In this document: piece by piece, positions 766-51,239 of the stretch
Layout: each line of letters opens with the position of its first letter
Numbering within the stretch: position 1 is the first letter of the stretch
From: a bacterium
Lineage (GTDB): Bacteria; Patescibacteriota; CPR2; UBA1875; JAJYID01
Direction of reading: 5' to 3'
Assembly: GCA_021787535.1 (NCBI GenBank)
Contig: JAJYLR010000001.1
Coordinates: 147,648 to 211,647, forward strand
Length of the DNA stretch: 64,000 bases
Notes under the pieces: model-generated
Told to the model about the DNA's origin: nothing
The model's input: only the letters and a program-made list of their open reading frames with translations
Database searches by the model: none
Translations under genes and position numbers: made by a program

Positions 766-830
766 TGTTGTCCTGAAGATTGACTCAGATCATAGATTAT
801 ATAGATTCCGGATCAAGTCTGGAATGACAG
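766..830 (+). repeat. composite miniature palindromic repeat, long form, copy 1 (TGTCCTGAAG...GATTCCGGATCAAGTCTGGAATGACA)
   Basis: near-identical copies at 28228-28290 and 34921-34982, each in a gene-gene spacer. Confidence 0.85.
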
Positions 831-889
831 ATGGTTTTAAAAAGTTTTTTAAGTTATAATATCGATATTAGTAAAAAACGGAGTCTATT

Positions 890-2014
890 ATGGCAGAAGA
901 TGAAAAACAGCCGGAAGAGCCGTCGGAAGAACTAAATATTATCGAAGAAGAAAAAGCCCAGGAAAAAGGCGAGCTGGATTATAACGGTATTTTTGACGAT
1001 GATTATGTAGAGGGCAAAACTGAAGCCAGGGAAGAGTTTGATGAAAATGAACAGCACAGAGACGATATGCTTGAAGAAACTGACGGGGGTGAAGAAATAG
1101 CAGAAGAACCCAAGCCAGGGAAGAAAAATCAAGACAAATCCAAAAAATCTTCCAAAAAATCTTCTTCTGAAAAAAAGGAAGCCAAAAAAGAGGAGAAGAC
1201 CGATCCGGATAAAACCAAGGAAGTAAAGGAAGAGAAGATTGCCCCTGAAGATCCCGCTCAAAAACCAGGCAGCAGCAAAGGATCATTCGCAAAGAAAATT
1301 CTTATTGTATTGGCTATACTTTTTGCCTTGCTTCTTGGTGCTTTTGGCGGATATCTTTATTTCAAAAAGACAAGTAAACAGCTAGAGGAAGCAAAGCCGC
1401 CGACCACGACCACCACACCCGCAACAAAGAAAACTAAAAAGTATGTTTATGTAACAGCGAGCGACGGTCTGAATATGCGCCAGAATCCAGACTCAAGCGC
1501 TAAAGTTCTGGCAGTCATACCTTATGGAACCAAATTATCTGTTATAGATACGCAAAATGGCTGGGATAAGGTTGAGTATAATGGCCAGCAGGGCTGGGTT
1601 TCGGCTGATTATGTGAGCGAAACTAAGCCAGAAGACTTCAAAACCTACATCGGAACCGGGCAAATGCCGGATAATCCCAAGTTTAGCGTACAATATCCAA
1701 GCGATTGGGTGCTGGATGGCTACAAAGTTTCCAAAACGGATAATGGCAAGGTATATACCATAGCGCTTGGGGCGGGCGGACATGGATTTAGTGAAGGTGA
1801 TACCTCAATCACTAGCAGCCAGGAAAATATAACTGTTAATGGGAATGCCGGCATAAAAACGACGGCAGTGAAAGATGGCAAGATTGTGTCTCTAGTTACG
1901 GCTTTTACAAAAGGAAATGGCTATATCAATATCGAATTTGAGCCGCCAGCAGGCTATGACCAGTCATATATCGATATCTATAATAAGATCGTCGAAACGT
2001 TTAAATTTTTGTAG
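890..2014 (+). CDS. membrane-anchored protein with acidic Lys/Glu-rich N-terminus and bacterial SH3 (SH3b) domain
   Basis: low-complexity E/K-rich N-terminus, one TM helix (ILIVLAILFALLLGAFGGYLYF), SH3b-like segment YVYVTASDGLNMRQNP...GWDKVEY...GWVSADYV. Confidence 0.45.
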   Translation: MAEDEKQPEEPSEELNIIEEEKAQEKGELDYNGIFDDDYVEGKTEAREEFDENEQHRDDMLEETDGGEEIAEEPKPGKKNQDKSKKSSKKSSSEKKEAKKEEKTDPDKTKEVKEEKIAPEDPAQKPGSSKGSFAKKILIVLAILFALLLGAFGGYLYFKKTSKQLEEAKPPTTTTTPATKKTKKYVYVTASDGLNMRQNPDSSAKVLAVIPYGTKLSVIDTQNGWDKVEYNGQQGWVSADYVSETKPEDFKTYIGTGQMPDNPKFSVQYPSDWVLDGYKVSKTDNGKVYTIALGAGGHGFSEGDTSITSSQENITVNGNAGIKTTAVKDGKIVSLVTAFTKGNGYINIEFEPPAGYDQSYIDIYNKIVETFKFL

Positions 2015-2137
2015 AAAATCGTTGACAATAGCGACAGAAAAAGTTACCCTACATCTAGGGTAAGATGTTAATTTTCAATTCTTAATTTCTAATTTTCAAT
2101 CAAGTCCCAATTCTTCAATGAATAAATAAGCAGTTGT

Positions 2138-2159
2138 TACACTAATATGTATTAGTGTA
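2138..2159. promoter_or_regulatory. perfect 9-4-9 palindrome TACACTAAT-ATGT-ATTAGTGTA upstream of Phd-like gene (candidate operator); second imperfect palindrome at 2165-2190
   Basis: read directly from sequence. Confidence 0.4.
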
Positions 2160-2210
2160 GTGGTCTGCAAGGGTCTGTCCTTTGCAGATCGAAGAGTATT
2201 TTACAAAGTA

Positions 2211-2276
2211 TGTCATTCTGTGGAACGAAGAATCTCTCTAGATCCTTCGTCGTACCTCCTCAGGATGACAATGAGG
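2211..2276 (+). repeat. MITE-like element with 10-bp terminal inverted repeats TGTCATTCTG/CAGGATGACA and nested internal hairpin
   Basis: related copy 7949-8004. Confidence 0.7.
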
Positions 2277-2283
2277 AGCATTT

Positions 2284-2505
2284 ATGAAGGAAAAATTTAT
2301 TACAACAAATGAGCTGGCAAACGATGCTTCAAAGATTCTAAAGAATTTGAAAGACGGCGAAGGCGTAGTAGTCCTTCGCTACTCAGAGCCGGTCGGCGTC
2401 CTTATTTCCTATGACGATTATAAGAAGTTAATGAACCTAGAATCAGAGTTTGTTTCTGAGTGCAAGGTCTGTCTGGGAGCGATAAAGAAGAAAGGGAAAA
2501 ATTAA
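2284..2505 (+). CDS. Phd/YefM-like antitoxin-family small protein
   Basis: 73 aa; pattern VVVLRYSEPVGVLISYDDYKKL resembles Phd/YefM antitoxin fold; perfect 9-4-9 palindrome upstream. Confidence 0.4.
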   Translation: MKEKFITTNELANDASKILKNLKDGEGVVVLRYSEPVGVLISYDDYKKLMNLESEFVSECKVCLGAIKKKGKN

Positions 2506-2870
2506 TGGCAGAAAATTCTGAATCAAGTAAGTATGGTGATCAGATGACGCATAGAAAATTAGTCAGGGATAGAATACCTGAAATTATAGAAGCAAATGAT
2601 CAGAAACATGAGACCAGAATTCTAGAAAAGGACGAACATCTAGAACTCCTCAAAAAGAAACTATTAGAGGAATCTCAGGAAGTAGTTGAAGCTACAAATA
2701 GAGACGAAACTATTAAAGAGCTAGCAGATGTTTCTGAGGTTGTCCGTTCTATTGCTGAAAGTGAAGGGATAGGTATGGATGAGATTAATGAGGTCATGGA
2801 GGATAGAGCTGAAAAAAGAGGCAGATTTAAGGATGGAATTTTTTTGGAAAGGACATGGACTGAGAAATGA
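2505..2870 (+). CDS. MazG-like nucleoside triphosphate pyrophosphohydrolase domain protein
   Basis: KLVRDRIPEII... EExEV motif pattern of MazG/PRA-PH-like all-alpha NTP-PPases; start ATG 2505 abuts stop of upstream gene. Confidence 0.5.
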   Translation: MAENSESSKYGDQMTHRKLVRDRIPEIIEANDQKHETRILEKDEHLELLKKKLLEESQEVVEATNRDETIKELADVSEVVRSIAESEGIGMDEINEVMEDRAEKRGRFKDGIFLERTWTEK

Positions 2871-4060
2871 TTTATTTTGACCATGCGGCGACGACGCCGG
2901 TTTCGAAGGATGTTTTAGATGCCATGAATCTGTATTTTAGCGAGAAATACGGTAATCCTTCCAGTATTTATAAAATCGGCCAGGAGGCAAAGTCAGCTGT
3001 TGAGAAAGCGCGGGAAGAAATCGCCGGTATGCTTGGCGCAAACCCTAGAGAGATTATTTTTACTTCAGGGGCGACGGAAGCAAATAATCTGGCTTTGAAA
3101 GGAGTGGCATTTTATTGGTCACAAATATTAAAGACTAAACCGCATATTATCATCAGCTCTATCGAGCATCACTCTGTTTTGGACACGGCGGAATATCTGG
3201 AGAAGAACTTCGGATTTGAAGTTACAAAATTAGGTGTTTCGAATGAAGGAATAGTTAATCCGAAAGATCTGGAGAAGGCAATCCAGGAAAACACAGCTAT
3301 AGTTTTAGTGATGTATGGGAATAATGAAGTTGGAAGCATTCAGCCAATTTCTGAACTTTCAGAAATAATTAAAAAGGAAAAAGTAAAAAGGGAAAATGGG
3401 GGGAATGAGTTTCCGATTGTTTTTCACACGGATGCGGTGCAAGCTTTTCAATATTTAGACTGCAATGTTAGCGACTTGGGCGCGGATATGCTTTCTCTCA
3501 CCGGGCATAAATTCTACGGGCCGAAAGGGGTCGGGCTTTTGTATGTAAAATCTGGCACCAAGTTCCTTCCGCAGCAGCAAGGCGGAGCTCAGGAAAGACG
3601 ACAAAGAGCCGGGACGGAAAATGTGCCGTATATCGTCGGTATGGCAAAAGCAATGAATGACGCCAGAACTGAAAATCACAAAAAAGAAGTTGAGGATCTG
3701 AGGGATTATTTAATTGAGAAAATTACAAAGGAAATTCCGGATGTGATACTTACCGGACCGGAAGTCGGCGAAAAGAGATTACCACACATTGCCAGCTTCA
3801 TATTTAAGAAAATAGAAGGTGAGTCGATTCTCATAAATCTGGACTTGCTTGGTATTGCCGCCTCCAGCGGTTCGGCTTGCACGTCGGGCAGTCTGGCATC
3901 TTCGCACGTTTTGACGGCTATGGGTTATGACGACCTTCTGGCGCATGGTTCTATCCGATTTTCGCTTGGGAAAATGAATTCAAAAGAAGAAATTGATGAA
4001 ATGATGAAACATTTGCCGCAGATTGTAGAGAAATTAAGAGGAATGTCACCAATAAAATGA
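2867..4060 (+). CDS. iscS: cysteine desulfurase (class I NifS/IscS)
   Basis: PLP-lysine motif SLTGHKFYGPKG, C-terminal SSGSACTS active-site Cys loop; ATGA overlap with upstream gene. Confidence 0.9.
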   Translation: MIYFDHAATTPVSKDVLDAMNLYFSEKYGNPSSIYKIGQEAKSAVEKAREEIAGMLGANPREIIFTSGATEANNLALKGVAFYWSQILKTKPHIIISSIEHHSVLDTAEYLEKNFGFEVTKLGVSNEGIVNPKDLEKAIQENTAIVLVMYGNNEVGSIQPISELSEIIKKEKVKRENGGNEFPIVFHTDAVQAFQYLDCNVSDLGADMLSLTGHKFYGPKGVGLLYVKSGTKFLPQQQGGAQERRQRAGTENVPYIVGMAKAMNDARTENHKKEVEDLRDYLIEKITKEIPDVILTGPEVGEKRLPHIASFIFKKIEGESILINLDLLGIAASSGSACTSGSLASSHVLTAMGYDDLLAHGSIRFSLGKMNSKEEIDEMMKHLPQIVEKLRGMSPIK

Positions 4061-5173: not shown

Positions 5174-5179
5174 TTATTA

Positions 5180-5204
5180 GATTCTGGACAAGCCAGAATG
5201 ACAG
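5180..5204 (+). repeat. GAATGACA-hairpin repeat (GATTCTGGACAAGCCAGAATGACA)
   Basis: 7-bp stem ATTCTGG/CCAGAAT; followed by tandem GGAAATTG array 5221-5257 and degenerate copy 5291-5316. Confidence 0.85.
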
Positions 5205-5332
5205 ATTGAAGATTGTCTCATTGAGGATTGATTGGAAATTGGAAATTGTGAATTGGAAATTAAAAGTAAAGGGATTCCTCGACTTGTCCTTAACAGGAAG
5301 TCGCTCGGAATGACAAAAAGGAGACTAAATTT

Positions 5333-5728: not shown

Positions 5729-5740
5729 TTAAGAATTTCT

Positions 5741-5844
5741 ATTCAAATCCCAATTCAAAAATTTCTTAAATTAAAAATTGGACATTCATTAGGAATTAGG
5801 AATTCTTAATTTTTAATTGGATTCCCGACTTCTCGGGAATGACA
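5741..5844 (+). repeat. tandem AATT/GGAATT-type octamer array followed by hairpin repeat GGATTCCCGACTTCTCGGGAATGACA
   Basis: compensatory stem variant (CCCG/CGGG instead of CTGG/CCAG). Confidence 0.8.
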
Positions 5845-7927: not shown

Positions 7928-7948
7928 ATCTGATTCTGATTCGTCCAG

Positions 7949-8004
7949 AATAGTCATCCTGAGAGAAACGAAAGAATCTCTTTCCATGTCACTACTTCGT
8001 GGCC
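7949..8004 (+). repeat. MITE-like variant (GTCATCCTGAGAGAAACGAAAGAATCTCT...)
   Basis: shares GTCATYCTG..GAAACGAAGAATCTCT core with 2211-2276. Confidence 0.6.
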
Positions 8005-10648: not shown

Positions 10649-12613
10649 ATGAATTCAAATAAACTAAGGCAAAAATTTCTGAAATTTTTTGAGGAGAAGG
10701 GGCACAAGGTTATCTCTTCAGCTTCGCTCGTGCCTGAAAACGACCCCTCGGTGCTTTTTACAACCGCCGGCATGCATCCGCTCGTGCCATATCTCATGGG
10801 TGAGAAACATCCGCTTGGGAAGAGATTAGTTGACATTCAGAAGTGTATTCGCACCGGTGACATCGACGAGGTTGGCGATATTCAGCACATGACATTCTTT
10901 GAGATGCTTGGCTACTGGTCGCTTGGCGATTACTTTAAAAAAGAATCCATTCACTACACCTATGATTTTTATACAAAAGTTCTGGGCATTGACGGCGATA
11001 AAATCTCTGTGACGGTGTTTAAAGGAGATAATGACGCACCGTTTGACCAAGAGTCGTATGACACTTGGAAAGCAATTGGTATTCCTGAAGATAGAATATA
11101 TAAATATCCTAAAAAAGAAAACTGGTGGGGGCCGGTCACAGATACGGGACCGTGCGGACCTTGCACTGAAATGTTTATCGATACCGGACTAGAATCCTGT
11201 GGGCCGGACTGCGGACCTTCGTGCAACTGCGATAAATTCGTCGAAATAGGCAACAACGTTTTCATGGAATATTTCAAAAACCACGAAGGGAAGTTCGAGA
11301 AGCTGGAGCAGAAAAATGTCGATGTCGGACTTGGCTTTGAACGGCTGGTAATGATTGTGAATGAGCTCGATACCGTATTTGAGACGGATCTTTTCACCGG
11401 TATTATCGGGAAAATTAAAGAGCTGGCTTCTCCTTCTGTCATTCCCGCGCAGGCGGGAATCCAGACGGAATCTAAGGAAAATTCCATCCGTGTAATCGCC
11501 GACCATATGCGGGCGGCAACGATGGCGATAGCGGATGAGGTAGAGCCGTCTAATCTGGATAGGGGTTATGTGGTTCGCAGGTTGATCCGTCGCTCTATCC
11601 GTCACGGAAGACTTATCGGAATTGAGGGCAAATTTACGGCAGAAATAGCCAAAGAAGTAGTGAAGTCACTAGGCGATGTCTATCCTGAACTTAAAGATAA
11701 TGAAGAATTTATTTACTCGGAACTTGATAAGGAAGAGGAGAAGTTTAATGACCTAATCATTAAAATAAAACCTAAGGAGAATAAAAGAGTAGAAATAAGA
11801 AAAAGGCTAGAAAAAGAAATCATAGATGCTGATAAAAAATGGATACTCGATGATACAAAAGTTGCTGGTATCAAATTTGATGACTTGAACGAGGAATATC
11901 AGAAGAGCCCAAGAAAATTCGTTACAACTGTTTCTGGGGCGATGGCCTTTAGGATGGAAACCACACATGGTTGGCCCAGTGATTTGTATTTTGAAGATAT
12001 TGCCGAGAAATTGATTAGTGAAGAACCAAGTAAAAGTATTACTATCGAAAAAAAAATTAGTGAAGAAAAAAAGGCGTATGAAGAGTTTGTAAAAAAGCAC
12101 CAGGAATTATCCAGAAAAGGCGCCGAGAAAAAGTTTAAAGGCGGGCTTGGTGAGGTTTCTGAGAAAACCATTAAATATCACACGGCTACTCATTTATTGC
12201 ACGAGGCGCTCAGACAGGTGCTTGGCAATCACGTCTACCAGAAAGGGTCGAATATTACAGCAGAAAGAATGCGGTTTGACTTTACCCATCCGGACAAAAT
12301 GACCGATGAAGAAAAAAAGAAGGTCGAAGATATTGTAAACGAACAGATTCAGGCCAAGTTACCGGTTATTGAAACCATTACGACCGTGGAAGAGGCGAAA
12401 GGTGAGGGAGCGATCGGACTTTTTGAAGCCAAATACGGAGAAAAAGTGAAAGTTTACTCGATCGGCGGGCCACTCGATTCGCCTGATGCATTTTCCAAGG
12501 AAATCTGTGGCGGCCCGCATGTCAAAAACACCGGCGAACTCGGCCATTTCAGGATTAAAAAAGAGGAATCAAGTTCTAAGGGAGTAAGGCGCATTAAAGC
12601 CGTTTTGGAGTAA
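10649..12613 (+). CDS. alaS: alanyl-tRNA synthetase (short form lacking C-Ala domain)
   Basis: class II AlaRS catalytic core (FTTAGM, GDIDEVG) and editing domain HxxxH (HTATHLLHEALR), CGGPHV; 654 aa; contains in-frame palindromic repeat at 11438-11466. Confidence 0.9.
   Translation: MNSNKLRQKFLKFFEEKGHKVISSASLVPENDPSVLFTTAGMHPLVPYLMGEKHPLGKRLVDIQKCIRTGDIDEVGDIQHMTFFEMLGYWSLGDYFKKESIHYTYDFYTKVLGIDGDKISVTVFKGDNDAPFDQESYDTWKAIGIPEDRIYKYPKKENWWGPVTDTGPCGPCTEMFIDTGLESCGPDCGPSCNCDKFVEIGNNVFMEYFKNHEGKFEKLEQKNVDVGLGFERLVMIVNELDTVFETDLFTGIIGKIKELASPSVIPAQAGIQTESKENSIRVIADHMRAATMAIADEVEPSNLDRGYVVRRLIRRSIRHGRLIGIEGKFTAEIAKEVVKSLGDVYPELKDNEEFIYSELDKEEEKFNDLIIKIKPKENKRVEIRKRLEKEIIDADKKWILDDTKVAGIKFDDLNEEYQKSPRKFVTTVSGAMAFRMETTHGWPSDLYFEDIAEKLISEEPSKSITIEKKISEEKKAYEEFVKKHQELSRKGAEKKFKGGLGEVSEKTIKYHTATHLLHEALRQVLGNHVYQKGSNITAERMRFDFTHPDKMTDEEKKKVEDIVNEQIQAKLPVIETITTVEEAKGEGAIGLFEAKYGEKVKVYSIGGPLDSPDAFSKEICGGPHVKNTGELGHFRIKKEESSSKGVRRIKAVLE
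11438..11466 (-). repeat. hairpin repeat inserted in frame in alaS (reverse orientation; encodes VIPAQAGIQ)
   Basis: GTCATTCCCGCGCAGGCGGGAATCCAG = reverse complement of CTGGATTCCCGC...GCGGGAATGAC family consensus. Confidence 0.75.
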
Positions 12614-15728: not shown

Positions 15729-15743
15729 TCCTTAAAATTTCCA

Positions 15744-16193
15744 ATGACCAATCAATTTTCAAATTTTAAATTTCCAAAAAATATTAAGGCAGTAGCGCTT
15801 GATGTCGGGGAAAAAAGGATCGGAATTGCATACAGTGAAGATGGCATATTTGCGTTTCCTTTGAAAACCGTGCCTGCCGGTAATATTGCAGCGGAGATTT
15901 TGCAAATTGCAGAGGGAGGATCCCTTGAACGCATTATCATCGGGCTTCCCAGGAATATGGACGGATCGCTGGGATTTCAGACTGATAAGGTCAAGTCATT
16001 TGTGAGTGATAATCTGGCAAAATATCTGGATTTAGTGGAATATATCGATGAGACGGCTACAAGCGTTGAAGCGGCAGATCTTATGCGGGTTGAAGGCAAA
16101 GATCCCCGTAAAAATCCAGGGCTAATCGATGCGTATTCGGCTAAAATTATCCTTGAAGATTGGATTAGCAAAGTGAAAGGAAAAAACAAATGA
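15744..16193 (+). CDS. ruvX: Holliday-junction resolvase-like YqgF/RuvX
   Basis: ALDVGEKRIGIAYSE... RNase H-like YqgF signature, 149 aa. Confidence 0.8.
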   Translation: MTNQFSNFKFPKNIKAVALDVGEKRIGIAYSEDGIFAFPLKTVPAGNIAAEILQIAEGGSLERIIIGLPRNMDGSLGFQTDKVKSFVSDNLAKYLDLVEYIDETATSVEAADLMRVEGKDPRKNPGLIDAYSAKIILEDWISKVKGKNK

Positions 16194-22828: not shown

Positions 22829-22943
22829 CTGCCCGCTAAAACGTTTCGGAAAAGATTCGGCTCGCATTAGCGGGTCTTTTCTTTTGGCTAAATTACTTTT
22901 ATGAAAGGGCAATCTGTGCTAGAATTTGATTAATTTTTATTGT

Positions 22944-23035
22944 GTCATCTCGAGCGAAGTCGAGGGATCCCTTAAATACAGAAAGAAAGGGATTTCTCCG
23001 CTTATCACTAGCGTGATGTCGGTCGAAATGACAAA
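22944..23035 (+). repeat. ~90-bp MITE-like element with TIRs TGTCATCTCGAGCG / CGGTCGAAATGACA
   Basis: terminal inverted repeats plus internal palindromes (CTCGAGCGAAGTCGAG, GGGATCCC). Confidence 0.6.
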
Positions 23036-23044
23036 GAAGGCAAA

Positions 23045-25957
23045 ATGAGTAACAAATATGATCATAAAAAAATAGAATCCAAGTGGCGCGATATTTGGGA
23101 GAAAGCCGGTCTTAACCGGACTGATTTAAAGTCAGTCAAACCCAAACACTACAATCTCGTCATGTTTCCGTATCCGAGCGCTGAGTATATCCATCTCGGC
23201 CATATTTACTCTTACTCCGGAGCTGATGTTTATGGGCGATACCAGAGATTGAAAGGCAAAAATGTCTTTGAGCCGATCGGTTTTGATTCATTTGGCCTGC
23301 CGGCTGAAAACTTTGCTATAAAAAAAGGCATTCATCCGGAAAAGGTGATTGATCATGCAATCGATCAATCTACGAGACAGCTGAAAGAAGCCGGCTTTAT
23401 GTTCGACTGGTTCCGGGAAGTGATCACTTCAAAGCCGGATTACTACAAATGGACTCAGTTGCTTTTCTTAAAACTATATGATCAAGGGTTGGCATATCGG
23501 AAAGAAGCGCCGGTGAATTGGTGCCCGAGCTGCAAGACGGTTTTGGCAAATGAACAGGTGAAAGATGGTTTGTGCGACCGTTGTGACACTGAGGTTGTAC
23601 AAAAGGAAATGAAGCAATGGTTTTTCAAAGTAACCGATTACGCCGAGAGATTGATAAAAGACTTGGACAAAGTTGACTGGCCTGAATCGTCGAAAATTAA
23701 ACAAAGGAACTGGATCGGCAGAAGTGAGGGTGTGGAGATGGATATGCAGATTACAGACTCTAAAGAAAAGTTTTCGGTATTTACCACTCGCATTGATACG
23801 GTTTACGGCATGACATATGTGGTGCTGGCACCGGAACATCCATTAGTTAATAAAATCACGACTGACAAACAGAAGAAAGAAGTTGAAAAGTACAAGATTC
23901 AGGCGCAGAAACAGACAGAGATCGAGAGGCAGTCGCTCGAAAAGGATAAAACAGGGGTATTTACAGGATCGTATGCTATAAATCCGTTTACCGGTGAGAA
24001 GGTGCCCATTTGGATAGCTGATTATGTACTTTTTGGTTATGGAACCGGTGCTGTGATGGCGGTACCGGCTCACGATGAGCGCGACTTCGAATTTGCCAAA
24101 AAGTACAAGCTTCCTATTATCCAGTCTATTGCGCCTCATAGTGTGGATACAAAAAATCCTCCGAGAAAAGGTAAAACAGATACTAGAAGAAAAGTAGTAC
24201 ATGTGATTTTGGAAAATGATAAGGGCGAGGTACTTACTTTAAATCTCAAGGGTCAGGAATGGGGTGATAATAAGCCCAAAACACTCATCATCGGCGGTAT
24301 AGAAGATAGGGAATCTCCGGAAGAAGCCGCCATGCGGGAGATCGAGGAAGAAACCGGTTACACAGATGTCCAGATTTCAGAGGTTTACCCGATTGAATTT
24401 CATGCTGAGTTTTTTGCCGCCCATAAAGATGTTAATCGTTATGTAGAAACAGTGGGTGTTTTCTGTCAACTGAAGTCTGAGAAAAAAGTTCCTGTCAGTG
24501 AAAATGAAAAGAAGCTGCATGAAATTATCTGGGTTAAGAAAAAAAATCTTCTTTCTTCCGTAACCATCCCTGACGATATTTTTCTAGCGAAAGCTTATGT
24601 AGAAAAAATTGGCAGCTACACTGAATATGGTGTACTTATCAATTCTGGCAAGTTCACCGGCCTTATCTACGAAGAAGCTAAAAAGAAAATGGCTGATTGG
24701 CTGGAGAAGAAAGGCATTGGCTCTCGCAAAATTAATTACCGTCTTCATGATTGGTCTATTGGACGACAAAGATACTGGGGAGCGCCGATACCGATCATTC
24801 ATTGCGACAAATGCGGGGTAGTGCCGGTTCCGGAGAAAGATTTGCCGGTTAAACTGCCGGAAAATATCAAAGATTTCCGGCCGAAAGGGACGGGGAAAGG
24901 TCCTTTGGCTAGCGTATCTGAATTTGTAAACGTAAAATGTCCAAGATGCGGAGGTAAAGCAGAGCGAGAAACTGATACCATGGATACTTTTGTCGACTCC
25001 AGCTTTTATTTCCTTCGTTATCCGAGTACGGGGGATGATACTCAAATGATGGAGCCAAAGGTTACCAAAAAATGGCTGCCTGTTGATATGTATGTCGGTG
25101 GTGCTGAACATGTAACCATGCATTTGCTTTATGCCAGATTTATCACGAAGGCCTTACATGATGCCAAACTGATTACTTTTGATGAGCCATTTATGAAGCT
25201 TCGCCATCAGGGATATATTTTGGGTCCGGATGGTAAAAAGATGTCTAAGTCAAAGGGCAATGTTGTTAATCCGGACGGCGTTGTCAAAGAGCATGGAGCG
25301 GACGCTTTCAGAACCTACATACTCTTTATGGCTCGGTTTGAAGACGGCGGTCCGTGGAACCCCAAAGGTTTAGTCGGTGTCAGCCGATTTCTGGAAAAGA
25401 TTTGGAGAATTGGAATTGGGTTGGATTCCCGTCTGCACGGGAATGACAATAAGGGTAATTGGCCGGACGTGTCTAGCACAGAGGTGCAGGCAAAACTTGC
25501 CAGAACTATCAAAAAGGTTGGGGAAGATATTGAGAGCTTTAAATTTAATACAGCCGTAGCTTCGCTTATGACGCTTATGAATGGCATCTCAGTTGAGAAA
25601 AGACCAGATGAAGATTGGATTAGTAAAGGAGACTTTGAAAAACTTCTGATTATTCTTGCGCCGTTTGCGCCATTTATAACCGAAGAACTTTGGGAAAAGC
25701 TTGGTAACAAGGATAGTATTCATGTAGAGAAGTGGCCGGCTTATGATGAAAAACTGATCCAGGAAGAGGCGGTGACAATCGCTGTACAGGTTAACGGCAA
25801 AGTCCGCGATCAGCTGGTTGTGAATGTCGATAGTGCAAAAGACGAAGTTTTTGAACTGGCAAAGGCAAGTGAGAAGGTGCAGAAGTATTTGTTAGATAAA
25901 GAGGTTAAAAAGGTTATCTATATCGAAGGTAAGCTACTTAGTCTTGTCGTGAACTAG
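23045..25957 (+). CDS. leuS: leucyl-tRNA synthetase with internal Nudix-domain insertion
   Basis: HIGH (HLGH), TTRIDT, AVPAHDERD, KMSKS; ~165-aa insertion (aa ~363-528) containing perfect Nudix box GGIEDRESPEEAAMREIEEETGY; second small in-frame palindromic-repeat insertion at 25423-25448. Confidence 0.9.
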   Translation: MSNKYDHKKIESKWRDIWEKAGLNRTDLKSVKPKHYNLVMFPYPSAEYIHLGHIYSYSGADVYGRYQRLKGKNVFEPIGFDSFGLPAENFAIKKGIHPEKVIDHAIDQSTRQLKEAGFMFDWFREVITSKPDYYKWTQLLFLKLYDQGLAYRKEAPVNWCPSCKTVLANEQVKDGLCDRCDTEVVQKEMKQWFFKVTDYAERLIKDLDKVDWPESSKIKQRNWIGRSEGVEMDMQITDSKEKFSVFTTRIDTVYGMTYVVLAPEHPLVNKITTDKQKKEVEKYKIQAQKQTEIERQSLEKDKTGVFTGSYAINPFTGEKVPIWIADYVLFGYGTGAVMAVPAHDERDFEFAKKYKLPIIQSIAPHSVDTKNPPRKGKTDTRRKVVHVILENDKGEVLTLNLKGQEWGDNKPKTLIIGGIEDRESPEEAAMREIEEETGYTDVQISEVYPIEFHAEFFAAHKDVNRYVETVGVFCQLKSEKKVPVSENEKKLHEIIWVKKKNLLSSVTIPDDIFLAKAYVEKIGSYTEYGVLINSGKFTGLIYEEAKKKMADWLEKKGIGSRKINYRLHDWSIGRQRYWGAPIPIIHCDKCGVVPVPEKDLPVKLPENIKDFRPKGTGKGPLASVSEFVNVKCPRCGGKAERETDTMDTFVDSSFYFLRYPSTGDDTQMMEPKVTKKWLPVDMYVGGAEHVTMHLLYARFITKALHDAKLITFDEPFMKLRHQGYILGPDGKKMSKSKGNVVNPDGVVKEHGADAFRTYILFMARFEDGGPWNPKGLVGVSRFLEKIWRIGIGLDSRLHGNDNKGNWPDVSSTEVQAKLARTIKKVGEDIESFKFNTAVASLMTLMNGISVEKRPDEDWISKGDFEKLLIILAPFAPFITEELWEKLGNKDSIHVEKWPAYDEKLIQEEAVTIAVQVNGKVRDQLVVNVDSAKDEVFELAKASEKVQKYLLDKEVKKVIYIEGKLLSLVVN
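25411..25448 (+). repeat. octamer (GAATTGGAATTGGG) plus hairpin repeat GGATTCCCGTCTGCACGGGAATGACA inserted in frame in leuS (encodes ...LDSRLHGNDNK)
   Basis: same family as intergenic copies. Confidence 0.75.
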
Positions 25958-25992: not shown

Positions 25993-26066
25993 TGTCATTC
26001 TCGGGCTTGACCCGGGAATCTATGAGTTAAATTTAAAAAATAGATCCTGTTTTCACAGGAATGACA
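25993..26066 (-). repeat. reverse-orientation hairpin repeat (TGTCATTCTCGGGCTTGACCCGGGAATC) plus half-copy ending GGAATGACA that supplies yceD ATG
   Basis: family consensus. Confidence 0.7.
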
Positions 26067-26556: not shown

Positions 26557-26799
26557 ATGGCAGTACCAAAGAAAAAAACCTCATATAGAAGAACCAGACA
26601 AAGGAGAACTCATCATGGACTTAGTGTTCCGACACTTGTGGCGTGTGCAAAGTGCGGAGAAAAAAACTTGCCTCATAGAGCATGTGCGAACTGCGGCTTT
26701 TATGGCGGGAAGAAAGTATTGGATACCCAATCGAAACTTGCCAAGAAGCTAAAAAAGAAGGAAAATGGAGAGAAGAAACAAGATAGCAAGGAACAATGA
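26557..26799 (+). CDS. rpmF: 50S ribosomal protein L32 with Lys-rich C-terminal extension
   Basis: MAVPKKKTSYRRTRQRRTHH canonical L32 N-terminus plus Cys motif. Confidence 0.9.
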   Translation: MAVPKKKTSYRRTRQRRTHHGLSVPTLVACAKCGEKNLPHRACANCGFYGGKKVLDTQSKLAKKLKKKENGEKKQDSKEQ

Positions 26800-26907
26800 C
26801 CAAACGAATTCCAATTTCCAAATTCAACACGTTTCTAATTTGAATATTGAGATTTGTTTGTATCTTGCATCTTGGTGATTGTATCTTTTAAAACGGGAGT
26901 TTAAACA

Positions 26908-28227: not shown

Positions 28228-28290
28228 TGTCATCCTGAACTTAATTCAGGATCCAGATCGTATAGATTCCGGATCAAGTCCAGAATGACA
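28228..28290 (+). repeat. composite long-form repeat copy 2
   Basis: matches 766-830. Confidence 0.85.
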
Positions 28291-34920: not shown

Positions 34921-34982
34921 TGTCACTGCGAACTTAATTCAGAATCCATAAAATAGATTCCGGATCGGAGTCCGGAATGACA
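34921..34982 (+). repeat. composite long-form repeat copy 3 (compensatory CGGAG/TCCGG stem)
   Basis: matches 766-830 with covariation. Confidence 0.85.
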
Positions 34983-35419: not shown

Positions 35420-35470
35420 AATCCAAATCGGTATAGAGTATTCTGTATTGATTATTGGGTATAAGAAAAA

Positions 35471-35494
35471 GCCGCGGAAACGCGGCTTTTATTT
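35471..35494 (+). terminator. rho-independent terminator GCCGCGGAAACGCGGC + TTTTATTT
   Basis: read from sequence. Confidence 0.65.
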
Positions 35495-35502: not shown

Positions 35503-35528
35503 TGTCATTCCCGCGGAGGCGGGAATCC
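35503..35528 (-). repeat. hairpin repeat, reverse orientation (TGTCATTCCCGCGGAGGCGGGAATCC)
   Basis: family consensus; second copy forward at 35633-35655. Confidence 0.8.
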
Positions 35529-35700
35529 AGTCAATTAAAATTAATTCTACTTTTTCTAAAAAAGTAGATAATATTTTTAAAGAGATAGATTGCCCATCTA
35601 TGTGGGAATAGAAGAAAACTGATGACTTAATAGATTCTGGTCAAGCCAGAATGACCCGTCACTATTACACAGTGCGGGGCAAGCATGTTAAAATAAGGAT

Positions 35701-36393: not shown

Positions 36394-36440
36394 CCAATCA
36401 ATGAGATTAAGAAATATTGAAAATTATACATTTAAATTTG

Positions 36441-36564
36441 ATTGGAAATTGGTAATTGCTGATTGGAAATTCTAAAACCTCTTTACACCACCGGCAAGAA
36501 TATTTAATATTTAATGTATAGATTACCGTTTTTACGGGAATGATAGAGAAAACGGGAATGACAA
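36441..36564 (+). repeat. tandem GATTGGAAATTGG array plus degenerate hairpin repeats ending GGGAATGACA
   Basis: family consensus. Confidence 0.6.
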
Positions 36565-37603: not shown

Positions 37604-37750
37604 CCATTTTCATTATAATAATGGAATTCTCAATTTCTCATTTTTCAGTGACCAATGAAAATTCATTGGAAATTGAGAAATGAAAACTGAAAATTATTTT
37701 TTTGCCTTTATGCTGGCAAAAGATCCCTTTTTCAGTTATAATGCCAACCT

Positions 37751-39925
37751 ATGGACAAATTTGTTTTGAAAAGCGGTTATAAAATGACTGGAGATCAACC
37801 GGAGGCGGCGGCCAGTTTAATCCGCGGTCTTGAAAATGGTCTGGACAAGCAAATTCTGCTGGGTGTGACGGGGTCCGGCAAGACTTTCACGGCGGCCAAT
37901 GTGATCCAGAAAATCAACAAACCGACTCTGGTCATTTCACATAACAAAACTCTGGCGGCGCAGCTGTATAGCGAATTCAAAGAATTTTTCCCCGATAATG
38001 CCGTGCGCTACTTTGTTTCTTACTACGACTACTACCAGCCGGAAGCTTACATCCCTCGTACCGATACCTATATTGAAAAAGACGCATCTATTAACGAAGA
38101 AATAGACCGGCTCAGAAATGCGGCAACGGCAGCTCTACTCTCAAGAAAGGATACCCTTATTGTCGCCAGCGTTTCCTGTATCTACGGTCTTGGTTCGCCT
38201 GAAGATTATATTAACATGAAAATAGATTTTGAAGCCGGCAAGGCGAAAAATCAGGAGAAAGCTATGCGCCAGCTTCTGGCAGTGCAGTACGAGCGAAATG
38301 ATCAGTCATTTGAAAGGGGAAAGTTCCGTGTGCGCGGCGATGTTCTGGACATTTATCCGATCTATGAGGAGAAAGCGGTACGCGTGACTTTCGATAATGA
38401 TATTGTGGAGTCAATTCGAGATCTCAATCCCGTGACAGGCGAGCTGGGCAAGAGAGTGGATAATGTTTCGATATTCCCGGCCAAGCACTTCGTCACGCCC
38501 AGGGAGAAACTGCTCTCAGCTATTCCGGAGATTGAGCGCGACCTGGCCAGCAGATTAGCCGAACTGAAGAAGCAGGGCAAACTGCTTGAAGCGCAGCGGC
38601 TGGAGCAGAGAACCAAGTTCGACCTGGAAATGATCCGAGAGACCGGCTACTGCTCGGGGATCGAGAACTATTCTCGTTATCTGGCAGGCCGTGCACCGGG
38701 CGAACCGCCGGCAACGCTTCTCGACTTCTTTCCTGATGATTTTCTAATGCTGATCGACGAGTCCCACATGACCATTCCGCAGATCAGAGGCATGTACAAC
38801 GGCGACCGATCGCGCAAAGAAACGCTTATCGAGCACGGATTTCGCCTGCCCTCAGCCCTCGATAATCGTCCGCTGCACTTCAGTGAATTTAAAAAATTCA
38901 TGAGCCCGGCCATCTTTATCTCAGCCACGCCGGGGGACTACGAATTCAAAACGGCCAGCGGACACAAGATTAACTCGGCCGATGAATATTACGAGGCGGC
39001 AAGAAGCAATGATCAATTTCCAATTTCCAATTTCCAATCAATTTCCAATGATCAAAATTCAAACAAAAACAGTCATTCTGGGGACGACAGGACTCCAGAA
39101 TCGGTTTTGGACAAGGATTCTGGACAAGCCAGAATGACAGGAAAAGGGTTCTCCTGGATTTCTGAACAGGTTATCCGCCCGACGGGGCTTCTCGATCCCG
39201 AGGTGGAAGTGCGCCCGAACAAGAACCAGATTGACGACCTCATTCACGCAATCCAGCTTAGGGTCAAGAAGGAGCAAAGGGTTTTGGTGACGACTTTAAC
39301 GAAAAGAATGGCCGAGGACCTAAGCGAATACTTGAAAGAGCTAAACATCAAGGTGACCTATATTCATTCGGAAATTAATACCTTGGAACGTCCGGAAATC
39401 CTGCGTGATCTTAGAAAAGGCGTCTATGACGTAGTTGTCGGCGTCAATCTTTTGCGGGAAGGTCTGGATCTGCCGGAAGTATCGCTGGTAGCAATCTTGG
39501 ACGCCGACAAGGAAGGATTTCTGCGCGGAGAGAACGCCCTCATTCAGACCATCGGGCGAGCGGCGCGGCACTCAGAAGGCAAGGTAATAATGTATGGCGA
39601 TACCATGACTTTATCTATGGAGCGAGCGATCAGCGAGACTCAACGAAGGCGCAGGATTCAAGAGGAATATAATAAAAAGCATGGCATTACGCCAAAGACT
39701 ATTAAAAAAGCTATTCGCGAAGACATCGTCCGGTCGGAAAAAAGAAAGAAAGAACCCAAATTCGAGATTACTGATATGCCGGCCGATGAACTTGAGCGCA
39801 TAGTTCAAGACATGCGTAAGAAAATGGAAATCGCCTCAAAGAACTTAGAATTTGAGCAGGCAGCCAAACTCCGCGACCAGATACAAGACATTAGAGCGAA
39901 GATAGAGTCAAAGAAAATAAAATAG
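37751..39925 (+). CDS. uvrB: excinuclease ABC subunit B
   Basis: [10 protein letters not shown] Walker A, DESH, helicase motifs, C-terminal UVR domain ([10 protein letters not shown]); ~50-aa in-frame repeat-derived insertion at 39000-39140. Confidence 0.9.
39001..39139 (+). repeat. composite element inside uvrB: (CAATTTC)n tandem array, hairpin GTCATTCTGG..CCAGAAT, hairpin GATTCTGGACAAGCCAGAATGACA; all in frame
   Basis: encodes ...[13 protein letters not shown]...[10 protein letters not shown]. Confidence 0.8.
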
Positions 39926-43961: not shown

Positions 43962-46786
<2,825 letters not shown>

Positions 46787-46787
<1 letters not shown>

Positions 46788-47545: not shown

Positions 47546-47655
47546 TTGTTTTGGCACAGAAAAAAGGAACAAAAATTTGGTAAAGTGGACGCAGAAAAAT
47601 TTTTTTGAAACAAAGCCAAAATACGGTATAATTATAAGGTAATAAAGGATTCCCT

Positions 47656-48174: not shown

Positions 48175-48491
48175 ACGGACATATCAAGATCGCTTGACTG
48201 TTTTGTTTCTCAACCCCGATTTAATTTTTGTGCTAAAAACCCTAAACCCCAAGTGACACAAACTTTGCCTACCCTCCTTCACCAAGGTTACGGGCGGACA
48301 GGTCGTCCAACTTTGTGTCACCTCAACTCCCGCATTTGTGCTAAAGAGATTCAGAGAAGAGTATAAAACACAAAATACAAAACACGGCATGGTGGCATTT
48401 CTGTACGATCACTCCTAAAGAAATAACCTTCAGTTCAATTCTGTGCTAAAATAGGAGGTGTAGTTTAGTGTTGCATAAATAATTTGAACAT

Positions 48492-50045
48492 ATGGATGTG
48501 AAAAGGGAAGTTAAAAAATTGCCGGCGAGTCCGGGGGTATACATTTACCGCAACTCGCGGGGCAGAATAATCTATATTGGCAAAGCGATTTCAATTCGTC
48601 ATCGGGTGAGCCAGTATTTTCAAGATGCGCGGGGATTGGATGATAAGACGCGGAGGCTGGTGCCCGAGATAGCCAAGATTGAATATATAAAGACAGGTTC
48701 TGAGGTAGAGGCATTAATCTTGGAAGCGGAGCTCATCAAGCGCTACAAGCCGAAGTTTAACATCCAGTGGAAGGACGATAAAAACTATGTCTATATCAAA
48801 ATCACGGCTGAGGATTACCCGCAGGTATCTTTGGTTAGACAGATCGTAGACGATAAAGCGCGCTACATCGGTCCCTTTGTCAGTGCCGGAGCGGTAAGAG
48901 GGCTTCTGAGATATGTCCGGAGGATATTTATGTTTAGGCATTGTGAGAACATGCCTCAGAAAGTTTGCCTGCAATACTCTATCGGCAACTGTACGGGTCC
49001 GTGCCAAAAATACATAACAAAGGCCGAATACAACAAAAACATTCGCAGGATGATCAAGCTTTTTCAGGGTAAGACCAAGGAGATTGAGAGGGAATTTAGT
49101 CGGGAGATGAAGCAGGCAGCTAAGAATGAGGATTTTGAGAAGGCGGCCATGTATAGGAATAGGTTGATGTGGTTGAAAAAGATTAAAACGATCGAGCTAG
49201 ATAAAGAAGATTTTGATTCCGGACAAGCCAGAATGACGAGGGATAAGGGATTAATCGGTTTGCGGGACGCACTGGACCTTGGCTCGGTTCCGAAGCGGAT
49301 AGAGTGTTATGACATCTCTAATATATTCGGAAAAGCGGCGGTGGGCTCAATGGTAGTTTTTATAGACGGGCTGCCGGATAAAGCGCACTACAGGAGGTTT
49401 GAGATTAAGACGGTAGATAAGATTTCGGATACTGATATGATCAAGGAAGTTCTCTCGAGAAGGTTCAGAAAATTCACCGATTCTGGACAAGCCAGAATGA
49501 CAAAGCAAAGGGATTCTTCGCGGAGTTTATCCGTCTTTGGCGGGCTTAGAATGACAGGGAAGGATAGCGTGGACAAATCTTTTACTCAAGTACCTGACCT
49601 CATTATCATCGACGGCGGGAAGGGCCAGCTGTCGGTGGCGGAGAAGGCGCTCAATGAGTATAGCCTGCATCTAAACTTGGTGTCGCTTGCCAAAAGGCGC
49701 GAGGAGATATTCAAGAAGGATTATGGTCAAGCCAGAATGACGAGGGTAGGCAAGCAAAACGGAAATTTTCAGAAAATTACACTGCCGGAAGGCTCTGAGA
49801 GCTTGTATTTGGTTCAGCGCATTCGTGATGAGGCACACAGATTTGCCATAACTTATCACAGAAGCAAGCGCGGCAAGGAGATGGAAGCGTCAAATCTGGA
49901 TGCCATATCTGGTATTGGCCCAAAAACCAAAAAAAAGCTTCTTAGAAATTTTGGTTCACTTGAAAACATAAGAAAAGCATCAAAAGAAGATTTAGCCGAG
50001 ATAGTCGGCGGGAAACTGGCTCAAAAGATCAAAGAAAAACTTTAG
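48492..50045 (+). CDS. uvrC: excinuclease ABC subunit C (compact, with 3-4 in-frame palindromic-repeat insertions)
   Basis: GIY-YIG (VYIYRNSRGRIIYIGKA), UVR domain, endonuclease domain, C-terminal (HhH)2 ISGIGPKTKKKLL; repeated SGQARMT peptides. Confidence 0.9.
   Translation: MDVKREVKKLPASPGVYIYRNSRGRIIYIGKAISIRHRVSQYFQDARGLDDKTRRLVPEIAKIEYIKTGSEVEALILEAELIKRYKPKFNIQWKDDKNYVYIKITAEDYPQVSLVRQIVDDKARYIGPFVSAGAVRGLLRYVRRIFMFRHCENMPQKVCLQYSIGNCTGPCQKYITKAEYNKNIRRMIKLFQGKTKEIEREFSREMKQAAKNEDFEKAAMYRNRLMWLKKIKTIELDKEDFDSGQARMTRDKGLIGLRDALDLGSVPKRIECYDISNIFGKAAVGSMVVFIDGLPDKAHYRRFEIKTVDKISDTDMIKEVLSRRFRKFTDSGQARMTKQRDSSRSLSVFGGLRMTGKDSVDKSFTQVPDLIIIDGGKGQLSVAEKALNEYSLHLNLVSLAKRREEIFKKDYGQARMTRVGKQNGNFQKITLPEGSESLYLVQRIRDEAHRFAITYHRSKRGKEMEASNLDAISGIGPKTKKKLLRNFGSLENIRKASKEDLAEIVGGKLAQKIKEKL
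49215..49750 (+). repeat. three to four hairpin-repeat copies inserted in frame in uvrC (49215-49237, 49479-49502, 49511-49556, 49728-49750)
   Basis: each read in same frame giving (D)SGQARMT. Confidence 0.8.
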
Positions 50046-50108
50046 AACAAGTATAATTGACAAAACATCTCCTGAAATATAAACTGAGTCCATTTACAAG
50101 GAAGAATA

Positions 50109-51077
50109 ATGAAAAAAGTAGTTGTGATTGGGGGAGGTACAGGTAACTATGTAGTGCTCTCCGGACTGAAAAAATATGATCTGGATATTTCAGCAATTGT
50201 CAGCATGGCAGATGATGGAGGATCTACAGGTATTTTGCGTGACGAAATGGGAGTATTGCCCCCCGGGGATGTCAGGCAATGTCTGGTAGCTCTCTCTGAG
50301 TCATCTAAAGAACTTCGGGAACTTTTTAACTATCGTTTTGAAACCGGCAAATTGGCCGGCCATAGCTTTGGGAATTTATTTTTATCAGCCCTTGAAAAAA
50401 TTGCCGGGAGTTTTGGACAAGCTGTCGAAGAGGCTGAGAAGATATTATGTACCAAAGGCAGGGTGTTGCCGGTCACTTATGACGAGGTTGTTCTGCAAGC
50501 TGATCTCGGAAATGGCCGGATAGTAAAAGGACAGATGAATATTGATAAGATAGGAATGTATAAATATCCGGATAAAAAGCTTTTTATAAAACCGCCGGCA
50601 AAGATTAATCCTGACGCTGATAGAGCGATCAGAGAAGCGGATCTGGTTGTAATTGCTCCGGGATCTCTATACTCAAGTTTACTTCCCAACTTGCTGGTCG
50701 AAGGGGTGCCAAATGCTCTCAAGCAGACGAAAGCCAGAGCCCTATATATTTGTAACTTAGTTAATAAACCAAATGAAACCCGGGGTTATACGGTTTGTGA
50801 CTATGTCGCAGAACTTGAAAAAGCAGGGCATAGAGAAATCGACATGGTGATTTATAATACCAAGAAACCAAAAAACAAAGTACTCGAAAGATATGTTAAG
50901 CAAAATGAGCTTTTGGTGGGAGAATGCCAGGCATCTTCCAGATATAAATTGCTTGAAGATGACGTATTGAAAGACGCTATCACTTCTCAGAAGAAAGGCG
51001 ATTTAATGAATCGGTCTTTCATCCGCCACGACAGCGATAAACTGGCATCTATCATTATGAATATTCTGGAGGAGTAA
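50109..51077 (+). CDS. YvcK/CofD-family gluconeogenesis factor (UPF0052)
   Basis: VVIGGGTGNYVVLSGL...MADDGGSTG signature. Confidence 0.8.
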   Translation: MKKVVVIGGGTGNYVVLSGLKKYDLDISAIVSMADDGGSTGILRDEMGVLPPGDVRQCLVALSESSKELRELFNYRFETGKLAGHSFGNLFLSALEKIAGSFGQAVEEAEKILCTKGRVLPVTYDEVVLQADLGNGRIVKGQMNIDKIGMYKYPDKKLFIKPPAKINPDADRAIREADLVVIAPGSLYSSLLPNLLVEGVPNALKQTKARALYICNLVNKPNETRGYTVCDYVAELEKAGHREIDMVIYNTKKPKNKVLERYVKQNELLVGECQASSRYKLLEDDVLKDAITSQKKGDLMNRSFIRHDSDKLASIIMNILEE

Positions 51078-51078
51078 A

Positions 51079-51207
51079 ATGAAAAAGGATTGGGAAGAGG
51101 AAGAAGAAAATCTCAAAAACCCCCGCAAGAGAAAAACGGAGAAAAAGAAAATGAAAGTTTCGGGGAAGGGTGTTTTTAAGATACAGAAACAGTTGAAGAA
51201 GAAATAG
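51079..51207 (+). CDS. putative 42-aa highly basic/acidic small protein
   Basis: ATG 9 nt after GGAGGAG and 1 nt after yvcK stop; no homology recognised. Confidence 0.2.
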   Translation: MKKDWEEEEENLKNPRKRKTEKKKMKVSGKGVFKIQKQLKKK

Positions 51208-51216
51208 GTTGAGTTC

Positions 51217-51239
51217 GTCATTCTGGCTTATCCAGAATC
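51217..51239 (-). repeat. hairpin repeat, reverse orientation (GTCATTCTGGCTTATCCAGAATC)
   Basis: family consensus. Confidence 0.8.

Follow-up and report, generated by a model that had tools for sequence, protein, structure and literature searches.

Hairpin repeats of the dRS3/NTS type in intergenic spacers and, in frame, within essential genes of a Patescibacteriota genome

The window analysed here is a stretch of 64,000 nucleotides (nt) of contig JAJYLR010000001.1 (assembly GCA_021787535.1, positions 147,648 to 211,647 of the forward strand), from a bacterium of the GTDB lineage Patescibacteriota; CPR2; UBA1875; JAJYID01. Among genes such as tatD, trxA, alaS, leuS, rnc, smc, rpsP, trmD, uvrB and uvrC it contains a family of short hairpin repeats, all curated units of which lie between positions 766 and 51239. 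A first reading of the sequence alone (the sequence-only reading) described them as a family filling intergenic spacers and resembling miniature inverted-repeat transposable elements (MITE) or repetitive extragenic palindromes (REP). The dense, structured, MITE/REP-like hairpins stand, whereas their confinement to spacers does not, as about a quarter of them lie in frame in essential genes.

The census gave about 30 hairpin units at 20 sites, of which 28 came from a hairpin scan followed by manual curation, the diverged doublet at 7933 to 7979 being counted in addition. This agrees with the more than 20 copies claimed previously, and enrichment beyond chance is evident from two counts. The motif GAATGACA occurs 17 times in the window versus 2.41 ± 1.68 in dinucleotide-preserving shuffles, and the flank-only pattern GTCATTC-N9-16-GAATC, searched on both strands, 15 times versus a mean of 0.095 and a maximum of 1 in 200 dinucleotide shuffles. 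Read on the opposite strand, the unit is 5'-TGTCATTC-(inner stem)-loop-(inner stem)-GAATC-3'. Both orientations are found, as had been noted, with 18 units versus 10, a nonsignificant bias (p = 0.18). The flank GTC...C is kept in nearly all copies, and T precedes GTC in 74% of 231 copies.

Because MAFFT misaligned the 3' arms of hairpins with different stem lengths, no covariance model was built, and covariation was scored by counting pairs from the outer base pair inwards in the 15 flank-defined copies, which were picked blind to the inner stem and thus provide an unbiased test. Inner pair 5 was T-A in six copies, C-G in six and T-G in three. Inner pair 6 was G-C in eight and C-G in five (87% paired, versus 47% and at most 73% when the 3' partners were shuffled among copies), while pair 7 was paired in 100% of them. 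In 221 further copies from other genomes, with 43 distinct inner sequences, pairs 5 to 7 were 95 to 99% Watson-Crick. These counts establish the covariation of the hairpin and bear out the compensatory stem substitutions reported from the sequence. Solo hairpins folded with z values of -4.3 to -4.6 relative to shuffles, and the longer forms bounded by terminal inverted repeats (TIR; 60 to 93 nt, with termini TGTCATYC...GRATGACA), also described previously, with z values of -3.5 to -5.2. Eight inverted doublets, the form known as REPIN, were found: 766-830, 2211-2270, 7933-7979, 22943-23035, 25993-26066, 28228-28290, 34921-34982 and 39068-39139. Three of these are the recurrent 63-bp composite of the sequence-only reading, with a mean column identity of 83% and a decayed left hairpin in two of the three. 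An Rfam scan of the whole window at gathering thresholds recovered four tRNAs only and no match to the repeat, which is thus not a curated RNA family.

The spacer copies are distributed as follows (strand in parentheses; doublets and arrays are given no strand). The 63-nt doublet at 766..830 lies between tatD and an SH3-domain gene, with a decayed left hairpin (766-792) and a right hairpin (804-829) that reads GATTCCGGATCAAGTCTGGAATGACA. At 2211..2270, a 60-nt element with TIRs TGTCATTC...GGATGACA and a nested hairpin (z = -5.07) ends 14 nt upstream of a phd/yefM-like start codon. Directly after the ferredoxin-thioredoxin gene there is a single hairpin of the common TGG-stem type, GATTCTGGACAAGCCAGAATGACA (5180..5203, -), followed by an array of CAATTTC heptamers (5219..5262), a mosaic partner between two hairpins, and by a long-stem variant ending in GAATGACA (5273..5315, -), 17 nt upstream of the nifU start codon. 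Another hairpin, with an exact ATTCCC-N8-GGGAAT core, occupies the nifU/cvpA spacer (5819..5844, -), and the diverged doublet, GATTCTGattcgtCCAGAAT then GTCATCCTGAGAGAAACGAAAGAATC, follows trxA (7933..7979). A 93-nt doublet with termini TGTCAT...AAATGACA (22943..23035, z = -5.15) stands directly upstream of the leuS start codon, and a 74-nt one (25993..26066, z = -3.45) between leuS and a yceD-like gene. The copy placed after rpmF in the sequence-only reading turned out to be a CAATTTC heptamer array with no hairpin (26794-26824). The best-preserved composite is the 63-nt doublet between rnc and smc (28228..28290), while the 62-nt one between rpsP and a KH-domain gene (34921..34982) has a decayed left hairpin. 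Further downstream are the hairpin TGTCATTCCCGCGGAGGCGGGAATCCAG (35503..35530, +), which starts 13 nt after a separate terminator-like hairpin, TGG-type hairpins upstream of trmD (35633..35656, -) and after a cofD/yvcK-like gene (51217..51239, +), and, after trmD, a hairpin with an extra 3' half-site, ACGGGAATGATAG...ACGGGAATGACA (36518..36563, -). Window copies range from perfect to decayed, the decaying ones being those at 766, 34921, 49215 and 49719.

Eight units lie in frame within alaS, leuS, uvrB and uvrC, the four long open reading frames (ORFs) that run through copies. In alaS, the hairpin TGTCATTCCCGCGCAGGCGGGAATCCAG (11437..11464, +) encodes the peptide SVIPAQAGIQ, and AlaRS has about nine extra residues at this point. 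The leuS copy (25422..25448, -) has a dRS3 core (see below) and encodes LDSRLHGND. In uvrB, a CAATTTC heptamer array (39001..39062) and a 72-nt inverted doublet (39068..39139, z = -4.69; left arm GTCATTCTGGGGA..GACTCCAGAATC, right arm GATTCTGGACAAGCCAGAATGAC) are both in frame, with DSGQARMT among the peptides read there, and the array is part of a 70-amino-acid (aa) insert: UvrB residues 400 to 469 have no counterpart in any of the 15 matching solved UvrB chains, the alignment going from chain residue 401 straight to 407. Three sites are occupied in uvrC, all on the minus strand: a TGG-type hairpin encoding DSGQARMT at site 1 (49215..49238), variably occupied in orthologs; a TGG-type plus a long hairpin at site 2 (49479..49556), inside a 78-nt in-frame insertion (49476-49553) absent from ortholog P0002; and a decaying TGG-type hairpin at site 3 (49719..49742), in a 39-nt in-frame insertion (49719-49757). 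DYGQARMT is also among the peptides read across these three sites.

The closest named relatives of the window UvrC belong to 'candidate division WS5' (about 70% identity) and to Patescibacteria (about 47 to 50%). The protein has 517 aa, compared with a baseline of 471 to 477 aa among 16 aligned UvrC orthologs, and the alignment shows four to five hot spots, with nothing inserted in some orthologs and differing repeat subtypes in others. Relative to P0002, the window gene has additions of 15, 78, 6 and 39 nt, and those of 15, 78 and 39 nt fall at the three repeat sites. Insertion polymorphism is established by two syntenic uvrC genes (P0013 and P0014) that share 92% DNA identity and differ by insertions of 171 nt (81 + 90) and 66 nt, both multiples of three and built from a heptamer array, hairpins and repeated 3' half-sites. 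At uvrC site 2 there is a possible ACNGG repeat, which overlaps the element's own GACA end. In the AlphaFold2 model of UvrC, the three insert sites (residues 235-250, 330-359 and 413-423) are coil with a predicted local distance difference test (pLDDT) score below 50.

All coding copies keep the reading frame, and none uses the one frame in six that contains a stop (ATT CTG GAC AAG CCA GAA TGA). Among TGG-type copies inside long ORFs of the window and of the loci fetched from other genomes (see below), 13 of 19 are read in the DSGQARMT frame (p = 6.5e-6, taking the five open frames as equally likely). Of the hairpins counted, those within ORFs of 200 aa or more made up 19 of 65 in loci from the candidate phyla radiation (CPR) and 5 of 14 in the window versus 7 of 109 in Nitrospirota loci (Fisher p = 1e-4; among the matches listed), which is consistent with a selective filter acting in a coding-dense genome. 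As far as sequence comparison can tell, the in-gene copies are insertions and not ancestral sequence, and they are predicted to be translated, not removed, mostly as the hydrophilic peptides DSGQARMT or LDSRLRGND. Literature searches on repeat-encoded peptides returned noise only.

The family had not been recognised in the sequence-only reading, which is no mark of novelty, as the sequence is of a type known from Neisseria (PMC11893778). In that genus, dRS3 is ATTCCC-N8-GGGAAT, and the longer Neisseria Transformation Sequence (NTS) reads CGTCATTCCCGCGMAVGCGGGAATCYRG; in many bacteria, ssnA, a gene for a 94-aa single-domain GIY-YIG protein, has NTS-like 'Ssn-related motifs' (SRM) on its flanks (PMC11893778). 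The SsnA nuclease is site-specific and acts on single-stranded DNA (ssDNA) only, which it cuts beside the hairpin, and in N. meningitidis it cleaves NTS-bearing ssDNA and modulates transformation (PMC11893778). The NTS-ssnA-NTS arrangement has been likened to an insertion sequence (IS) (PMC11893778, Nat Commun 2025). In the window, the alaS copy at 11437-11464 has 1 mismatch in 28 positions to the NTS consensus, the one at 35503-35530 fits it within the limit of three mismatches, and four copies have exact dRS3 cores (5821-5840, 11441-11460, 25425-25444 and 35507-35526). The remaining copies retain ATTC/GAAT while the inner stem varies. Judged by these matches, the window repeats belong to the dRS3/NTS/SRM class of Ssn-type hairpins. 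The main text of PMC11893778 contains no mention of 'Patescibacteria' or of in-frame coding copies, and our literature searches on CPR/Patescibacteria with REP, MITE, palindromic or in-frame repeats found nothing relevant. The host lineage and the stem variant are new, and the MITE-like gene-less doublets and the in-frame colonisation of essential genes are a behaviour unreported for this class.

The likeness to the Neisseria NTS goes beyond a near-identical core. In both, an asymmetric flank (GTC before the palindrome, C after it) orients the repeat, mosaic arrays with other repeats are formed, and, in related genomes, hairpins lie on both sides of a GIY-YIG gene of about 100 aa (see below). 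On the other hand, the window host is a CPR-like bacterium with a very small genome and not a proteobacterium, T and not C precedes GTC, gene-less inverted doublets are common, and the in-frame copies in essential genes are unreported in PMC11893778.

To look beyond the window, one genome per GTDB species was scanned for the exact 23-mer GTCATTCTGGCTTGTCCAGAATC, which was found in at least 119 stretches. Among the matches listed, CPR carriers included Levy-, Davies-, Gottesman-, Roizman- and Curtissbacteria, Berkelbacteria, Howlettbacteria, Kazan, WWE3, Saccharibacteria, Gracilibacteria, Peribacteria and Paceibacterota, and carriers elsewhere were Nitrospirota/Thermodesulfovibrionia, metagenome-assembled genomes (MAGs) labelled Gammaproteobacteria, Ignavibacteria, Nitrospinota, Desantisbacteria and LCP-89. 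Many of these listed carriers were groundwater or sediment MAGs. A phage origin of the repeats was considered and rejected, as only three exact matches turned up among 2.9 million viral contigs.

A simple GIY-YIG regular expression applied to 900 kb of fetched loci gave nothing real, while all-versus-all clustering of their ORFs recovered clusters of GIY-YIG and of Y1 proteins. The former is a family of about 100 aa, found in five loci (L040, L067, L069, L071 and, in two copies, L092), that matches Pfam GIY-YIG (PF01541); no other Pfam family and no NCBIfam model matched it, and no solved SsnA structure was found. A hairpin touches five of the six GIY-YIG ORFs, the exception (L069) being at a contig end. 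The same layout is found in L040, L067, L071 and L092: a longer upstream hairpin (e.g., TGTCATTCTGGGGAG...CTCCAGAATC), the gene, and a short 3' hairpin, GATTCTGGACAAGCCAGAATGAC, inside which the gene's TGA stop lies (...ILDKPE*). These loci establish the ssn-flanking architecture outside the window. Used as a tblastn query, the protein P0126 gave one match in each of two N. gonorrhoeae chromosomes, a 94-aa ORF with 16 NTS copies within 1.2 kb that fits the published description of ssnA; with 44% identity (E = 4e-27), the homology of the GIY-YIG family to the gonococcal SsnA ortholog is established. This ortholog is unannotated in the entry concerned (L131, NZ_CP119140.1 1880790-1884056), and PLSDB files these 2.17-Mb N. 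gonorrhoeae chromosomes as plasmids.

Two side observations concern these units. In L092 (5780-6260) both ends of an ssn unit are repeated in tandem: there are two copies of the left hairpin together with 19 nt of flank, and two to three of the right hairpin together with roughly the final 22 nt of the gene, which suggests repeated end-copying events. The Ssn-like GIY-YIG proteins nearest to the CPR query (P0121-P0240, among the matches listed) are mostly on contigs of about 0.6 to 2 kb, as would be expected if multicopy units break metagenome assemblies.

The uvrB doublet (39068-39139) connects the window to these units. Its left arm, GTCATTCTGGGGA...GACTCCAGAATC, matches the left ends of ssn units and its right arm is identical to their right end (in L040 and L071), so that the doublet has both ends of an ssn unit and would be a unit that lost its gene, in MITE fashion. 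We therefore consider it probable that the window repeats are Ssn-type hairpins of the dRS3/NTS class that derive from ssn units by loss of the gene and have spread through the genome, and that those surviving in frame are translated. The parent would be a small IS-like unit made of a left hairpin (GTCATTC...GAATC), an ssn gene for a GIY-YIG nuclease of about 100 aa, and an oppositely oriented right hairpin (GATTC...GAATGAC) holding the ssn TGA stop codon. The window would hold non-autonomous derivatives only, namely solo hairpins of 24 to 28 nt, inverted doublets of 60 to 93 nt corresponding to the two unit ends without the gene (MITE/REPIN-like), and mosaics with CAATTTC. By analogy with the IS200/IS605 and RAYT-REP systems (RAYT, REP-associated tyrosine transposase), Ssn may nick the hairpin in ssDNA during replication, repair or DNA uptake, and nicking may promote the copying of ends into new sites and so drive the spread. 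We infer that the genome has, or once had, an ssn gene. Elements would insert across the genome and in places decay. Since about 90% of the genome is coding, many insertions would hit genes, and the survivors would be additions of 3n nt that avoid the stop frame, are hydrophilic and fall in tolerant linkers or loops.

Several observations weigh against this explanation. To our knowledge, transposition by Ssn has never been demonstrated. Neither an ssn nor a Y1-transposase homolog was found in the 64-kb window by tblastn, and none of the 120 Ssn-like database matches listed is on the window's own contig, so a resident nuclease is unproven. The published SRM expression, HGTCWYN(0-2)YYVSBRHN(0-5)WNVSBRGN(0-2)RNCYNB, matches only 2 of about 30 window copies (0.14 expected); the common TGG-stem variant, ATTCTGG/CCAGAAT, fails it at the V/S positions, which puts the dominant variant outside the literal published definition. 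PMC11893778 demonstrates that ssDNA is cleaved and transformation affected, but does not demonstrate mobility. No clear target-site duplication was seen at the 171-nt and 66-nt uvrC insertions, the two clean filled/empty sites. Solved LeuRS homologs show a length-variable region at the hairpin and no clean gap, and the case for insertion there is thus the DNA identity to the family. Finally, the AlphaFold2 model of UvrC is poor overall (mean pLDDT 62.6), and for that reason gives little support to a surface-loop position of the inserts.

One alternative is that the repeats are kept for a host function at the DNA level: Ssn would cut hairpin-marked ssDNA and tune recombination or the uptake of transforming DNA, and the abundance of the hairpins would reflect domestication. 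The activity of the N. meningitidis enzyme described above, the sequence family common to the window and Neisseria, and a prepilin-type protein with an N_methyl motif (54109-54579), consistent with a putative DNA-uptake apparatus, all speak for it. However, insertions in essential genes, decaying copies and presence/absence at 92% identity look like parasitic spread followed by decay, and there is no evidence in the window of clustering around particular gene classes. We regard domestication as an unlikely origin of this abundance, bearing in mind that it overlaps with selfish spread rather than excluding it; a host role as in Neisseria, in the recombination of incoming ssDNA, is compatible with selfish spread and the two are not exclusive. 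That the hairpins are REP/REPIN elements spread by a RAYT, a Y1/HUH tyrosine transposase, instead of Ssn would account for the REPIN-like look of the inverted doublets. Moreover, 5 of the at least 119 hairpin-selected loci contain Y1_Tnp-like ORFs with an HUH motif, one such ORF weakly matching NCBIfam REP_Tyr_transpos (30.6 bits versus a cut-off of 80), and L108 has a hairpin doublet some 170 nt away from the Y1-like gene. However, more than 1 kb separates the Y1 gene from its nearest hairpin in four of these five loci, compared with hairpins touching five of six GIY-YIG ORFs, which makes RAYT the weaker candidate. The classical REP head motif is GTAG. The conserved head of the window repeats is TGTC, and with no Y1 gene in the window either we find this origin quite improbable.

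At the RNA level, the sequence-only reading had suggested that the copies may double as terminators or attenuators, selected for transcript structure. Many do lie in short gene-gene spacers, several end 14 to 17 nt before a start codon, and the stems covary. The idea fared badly nonetheless: on the sense strand there is no T-run after the hairpin, three repeats only, all antisense, are flagged in the terminator scan, and total terminator counts (15 versus 19.2 and 24 versus 20.4 expected) are as in shuffles. The convincing terminators at 35467-35490 and 22859-22876 adjoin repeats and are not within them. With both orientations in use, 8 units inside ORFs, no Rfam match at gathering thresholds, and identical 23-mers in unrelated phyla and contexts, such a role is very unlikely to explain the family. 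It is also hard to believe that selection at the protein level maintains the in-gene copies as functional peptide modules, with the likeness in DNA being secondary. The strong preference for the DSGQARMT frame and the recurrence of hot spots among UvrC orthologs would fit, yet tolerance of a hydrophilic peptide without stops is a simpler explanation of the frame preference. The same DNA is found between genes and in both orientations, giving unrelated peptides (VIPAQAGIQ, CHSGLSRI), close orthologs do without the inserts, and the inserts are predicted as low-confidence coil.

Spread of gene-less ssn derivatives, the explanation that we favour, also invites comparison with other repeat systems. 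With REP/REPIN-RAYT, bacterial interspersed mosaic elements (BIME) and IS200/IS605 the window repeats share short imperfect palindromes, single or in inverted doublets, and mosaic arrays; these systems further resemble the ssn units in having a small nuclease gene flanked by the repeats and an ssDNA hairpin as the expected substrate. The associated enzyme here is GIY-YIG and not an HUH/Y1 transposase, however, and the head motif differs. REPs, besides, are essentially extragenic, whereas the window repeats are also in coding sequence. MITEs such as the Correia element of Neisseria and QMITE1 of Coxiella are alike in having TIRs, in being non-autonomous, in the apparent loss of the gene from a gene-bearing unit and in occasional in-frame fusions. 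The window elements are much smaller, their ends are themselves hairpins, no clear target-site duplication was seen, and the presumed enzyme is not a DDE transposase. Rickettsia palindromic elements (RPE), in the account given in PMC10969869, are palindromes that sit in frame in various unrelated housekeeping genes, likewise in a reduced genome, and that add translated segments to the proteins, with a presence that varies among orthologs, in all of which they recall the window copies. That account gives them a size of about 100 to 150 bp and treats them as Rickettsia-specific families (Ogata et al. 2000, via PMC10969869). Compared by description, the window elements are hairpins of 24 to 28 nt and NTS-type composites of 60 to 170 nt, and for them one can point to Ssn as a candidate partner enzyme and to a parent unit that carries a gene; the difference in size and host argues against their being RPE. 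Rickettsia is itself among the SRM-rich genera (PMC11893778).

The CAATTTC arrays constitute a second repeat family. The heptamer array pattern, or its complement, has 14 matches in the window versus 4 expected; arrays are found at 2070-2129, 15736-15781, 36429-36472 and 37653-37695, in addition to those mentioned above (5219-5262, 26794-26824 and 39001-39062), usually within 100 nt of a hairpin. In L121, a heptamer array and hairpins form the 171-nt insertion in the relative's uvrC. A purine-rich, Shine-Dalgarno-like stretch often comes after the GAATGACA end of the hairpin elements, with a start codon 9 to 17 nt on (2263-2284, 5308-5332 and 23028-23044), and the yceD-like ORF has its first in-frame ATG within GAATGACA at 26059-26066. 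On the GAATGACA side, the flank is G-depleted on the opposite strand (231 copies). Elements may donate, or target, ribosome-binding regions.

Other features of the window concern the genes around the repeats. Downstream from the 2211-2270 element there is a Phd/YefM-type antitoxin ORF (2284-2460), followed by an ORF with a weak MazG-like match (to 2870). LeuRS (23045-25957) contains a NUDIX domain at approximately 24185-24550 (aa 381-502, PF00293, E = 2.5e-13), immediately preceded by an editing (CP1) domain with only 148 of the 185 profile positions matched. A NUDIX module within the editing region of LeuRS is unusual. A tRNA-Leu module occurs twice (54755-55083 and 56751-57070, with a 99-nt repeat of 87% identity), and between the copies are an IS481-like DDE transposase gene (55148-56035, -) and two tRNA-Val genes. 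The plus strand carries nearly all long ORFs, and almost every 4-kb bin has a positive GC skew (about +0.05 to +0.17), recalling the one-directional skew described for some Microgenomates genomes (PMC7143001).

The paper that described Ssn left open the role of these nucleases and hairpins outside Neisseria and the mobility of the hairpin-gene-hairpin unit (PMC11893778). Filled and empty sites at 92% identity, gene-less end-to-end derivatives and decaying copies now provide comparative evidence for mobility. The locus and its relatives also show that such repeats can enter UvrB, UvrC, AlaRS and LeuRS in a genome with almost no non-coding space. In practice, CPR annotations have protein families contaminated, and protein lengths inflated, by repeat-derived peptides (e.g., VIPAQAGIQ), and multicopy ssn units probably break metagenome assemblies. 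A bolder proposal, which we put forward only tentatively and consider doubtful, is that hairpin-ssn-hairpin units are ssDNA transposons with a GIY-YIG transposase of about 100 residues, that their gene-less derivatives remodel essential CPR proteins, and that the 23-nt hairpin shared across phyla reflects recent movement, possibly between episymbiont and host, and not convergence. If true, this would represent a new class of transposon, with a GIY-YIG transposase, and an exchange of hairpins between phyla.

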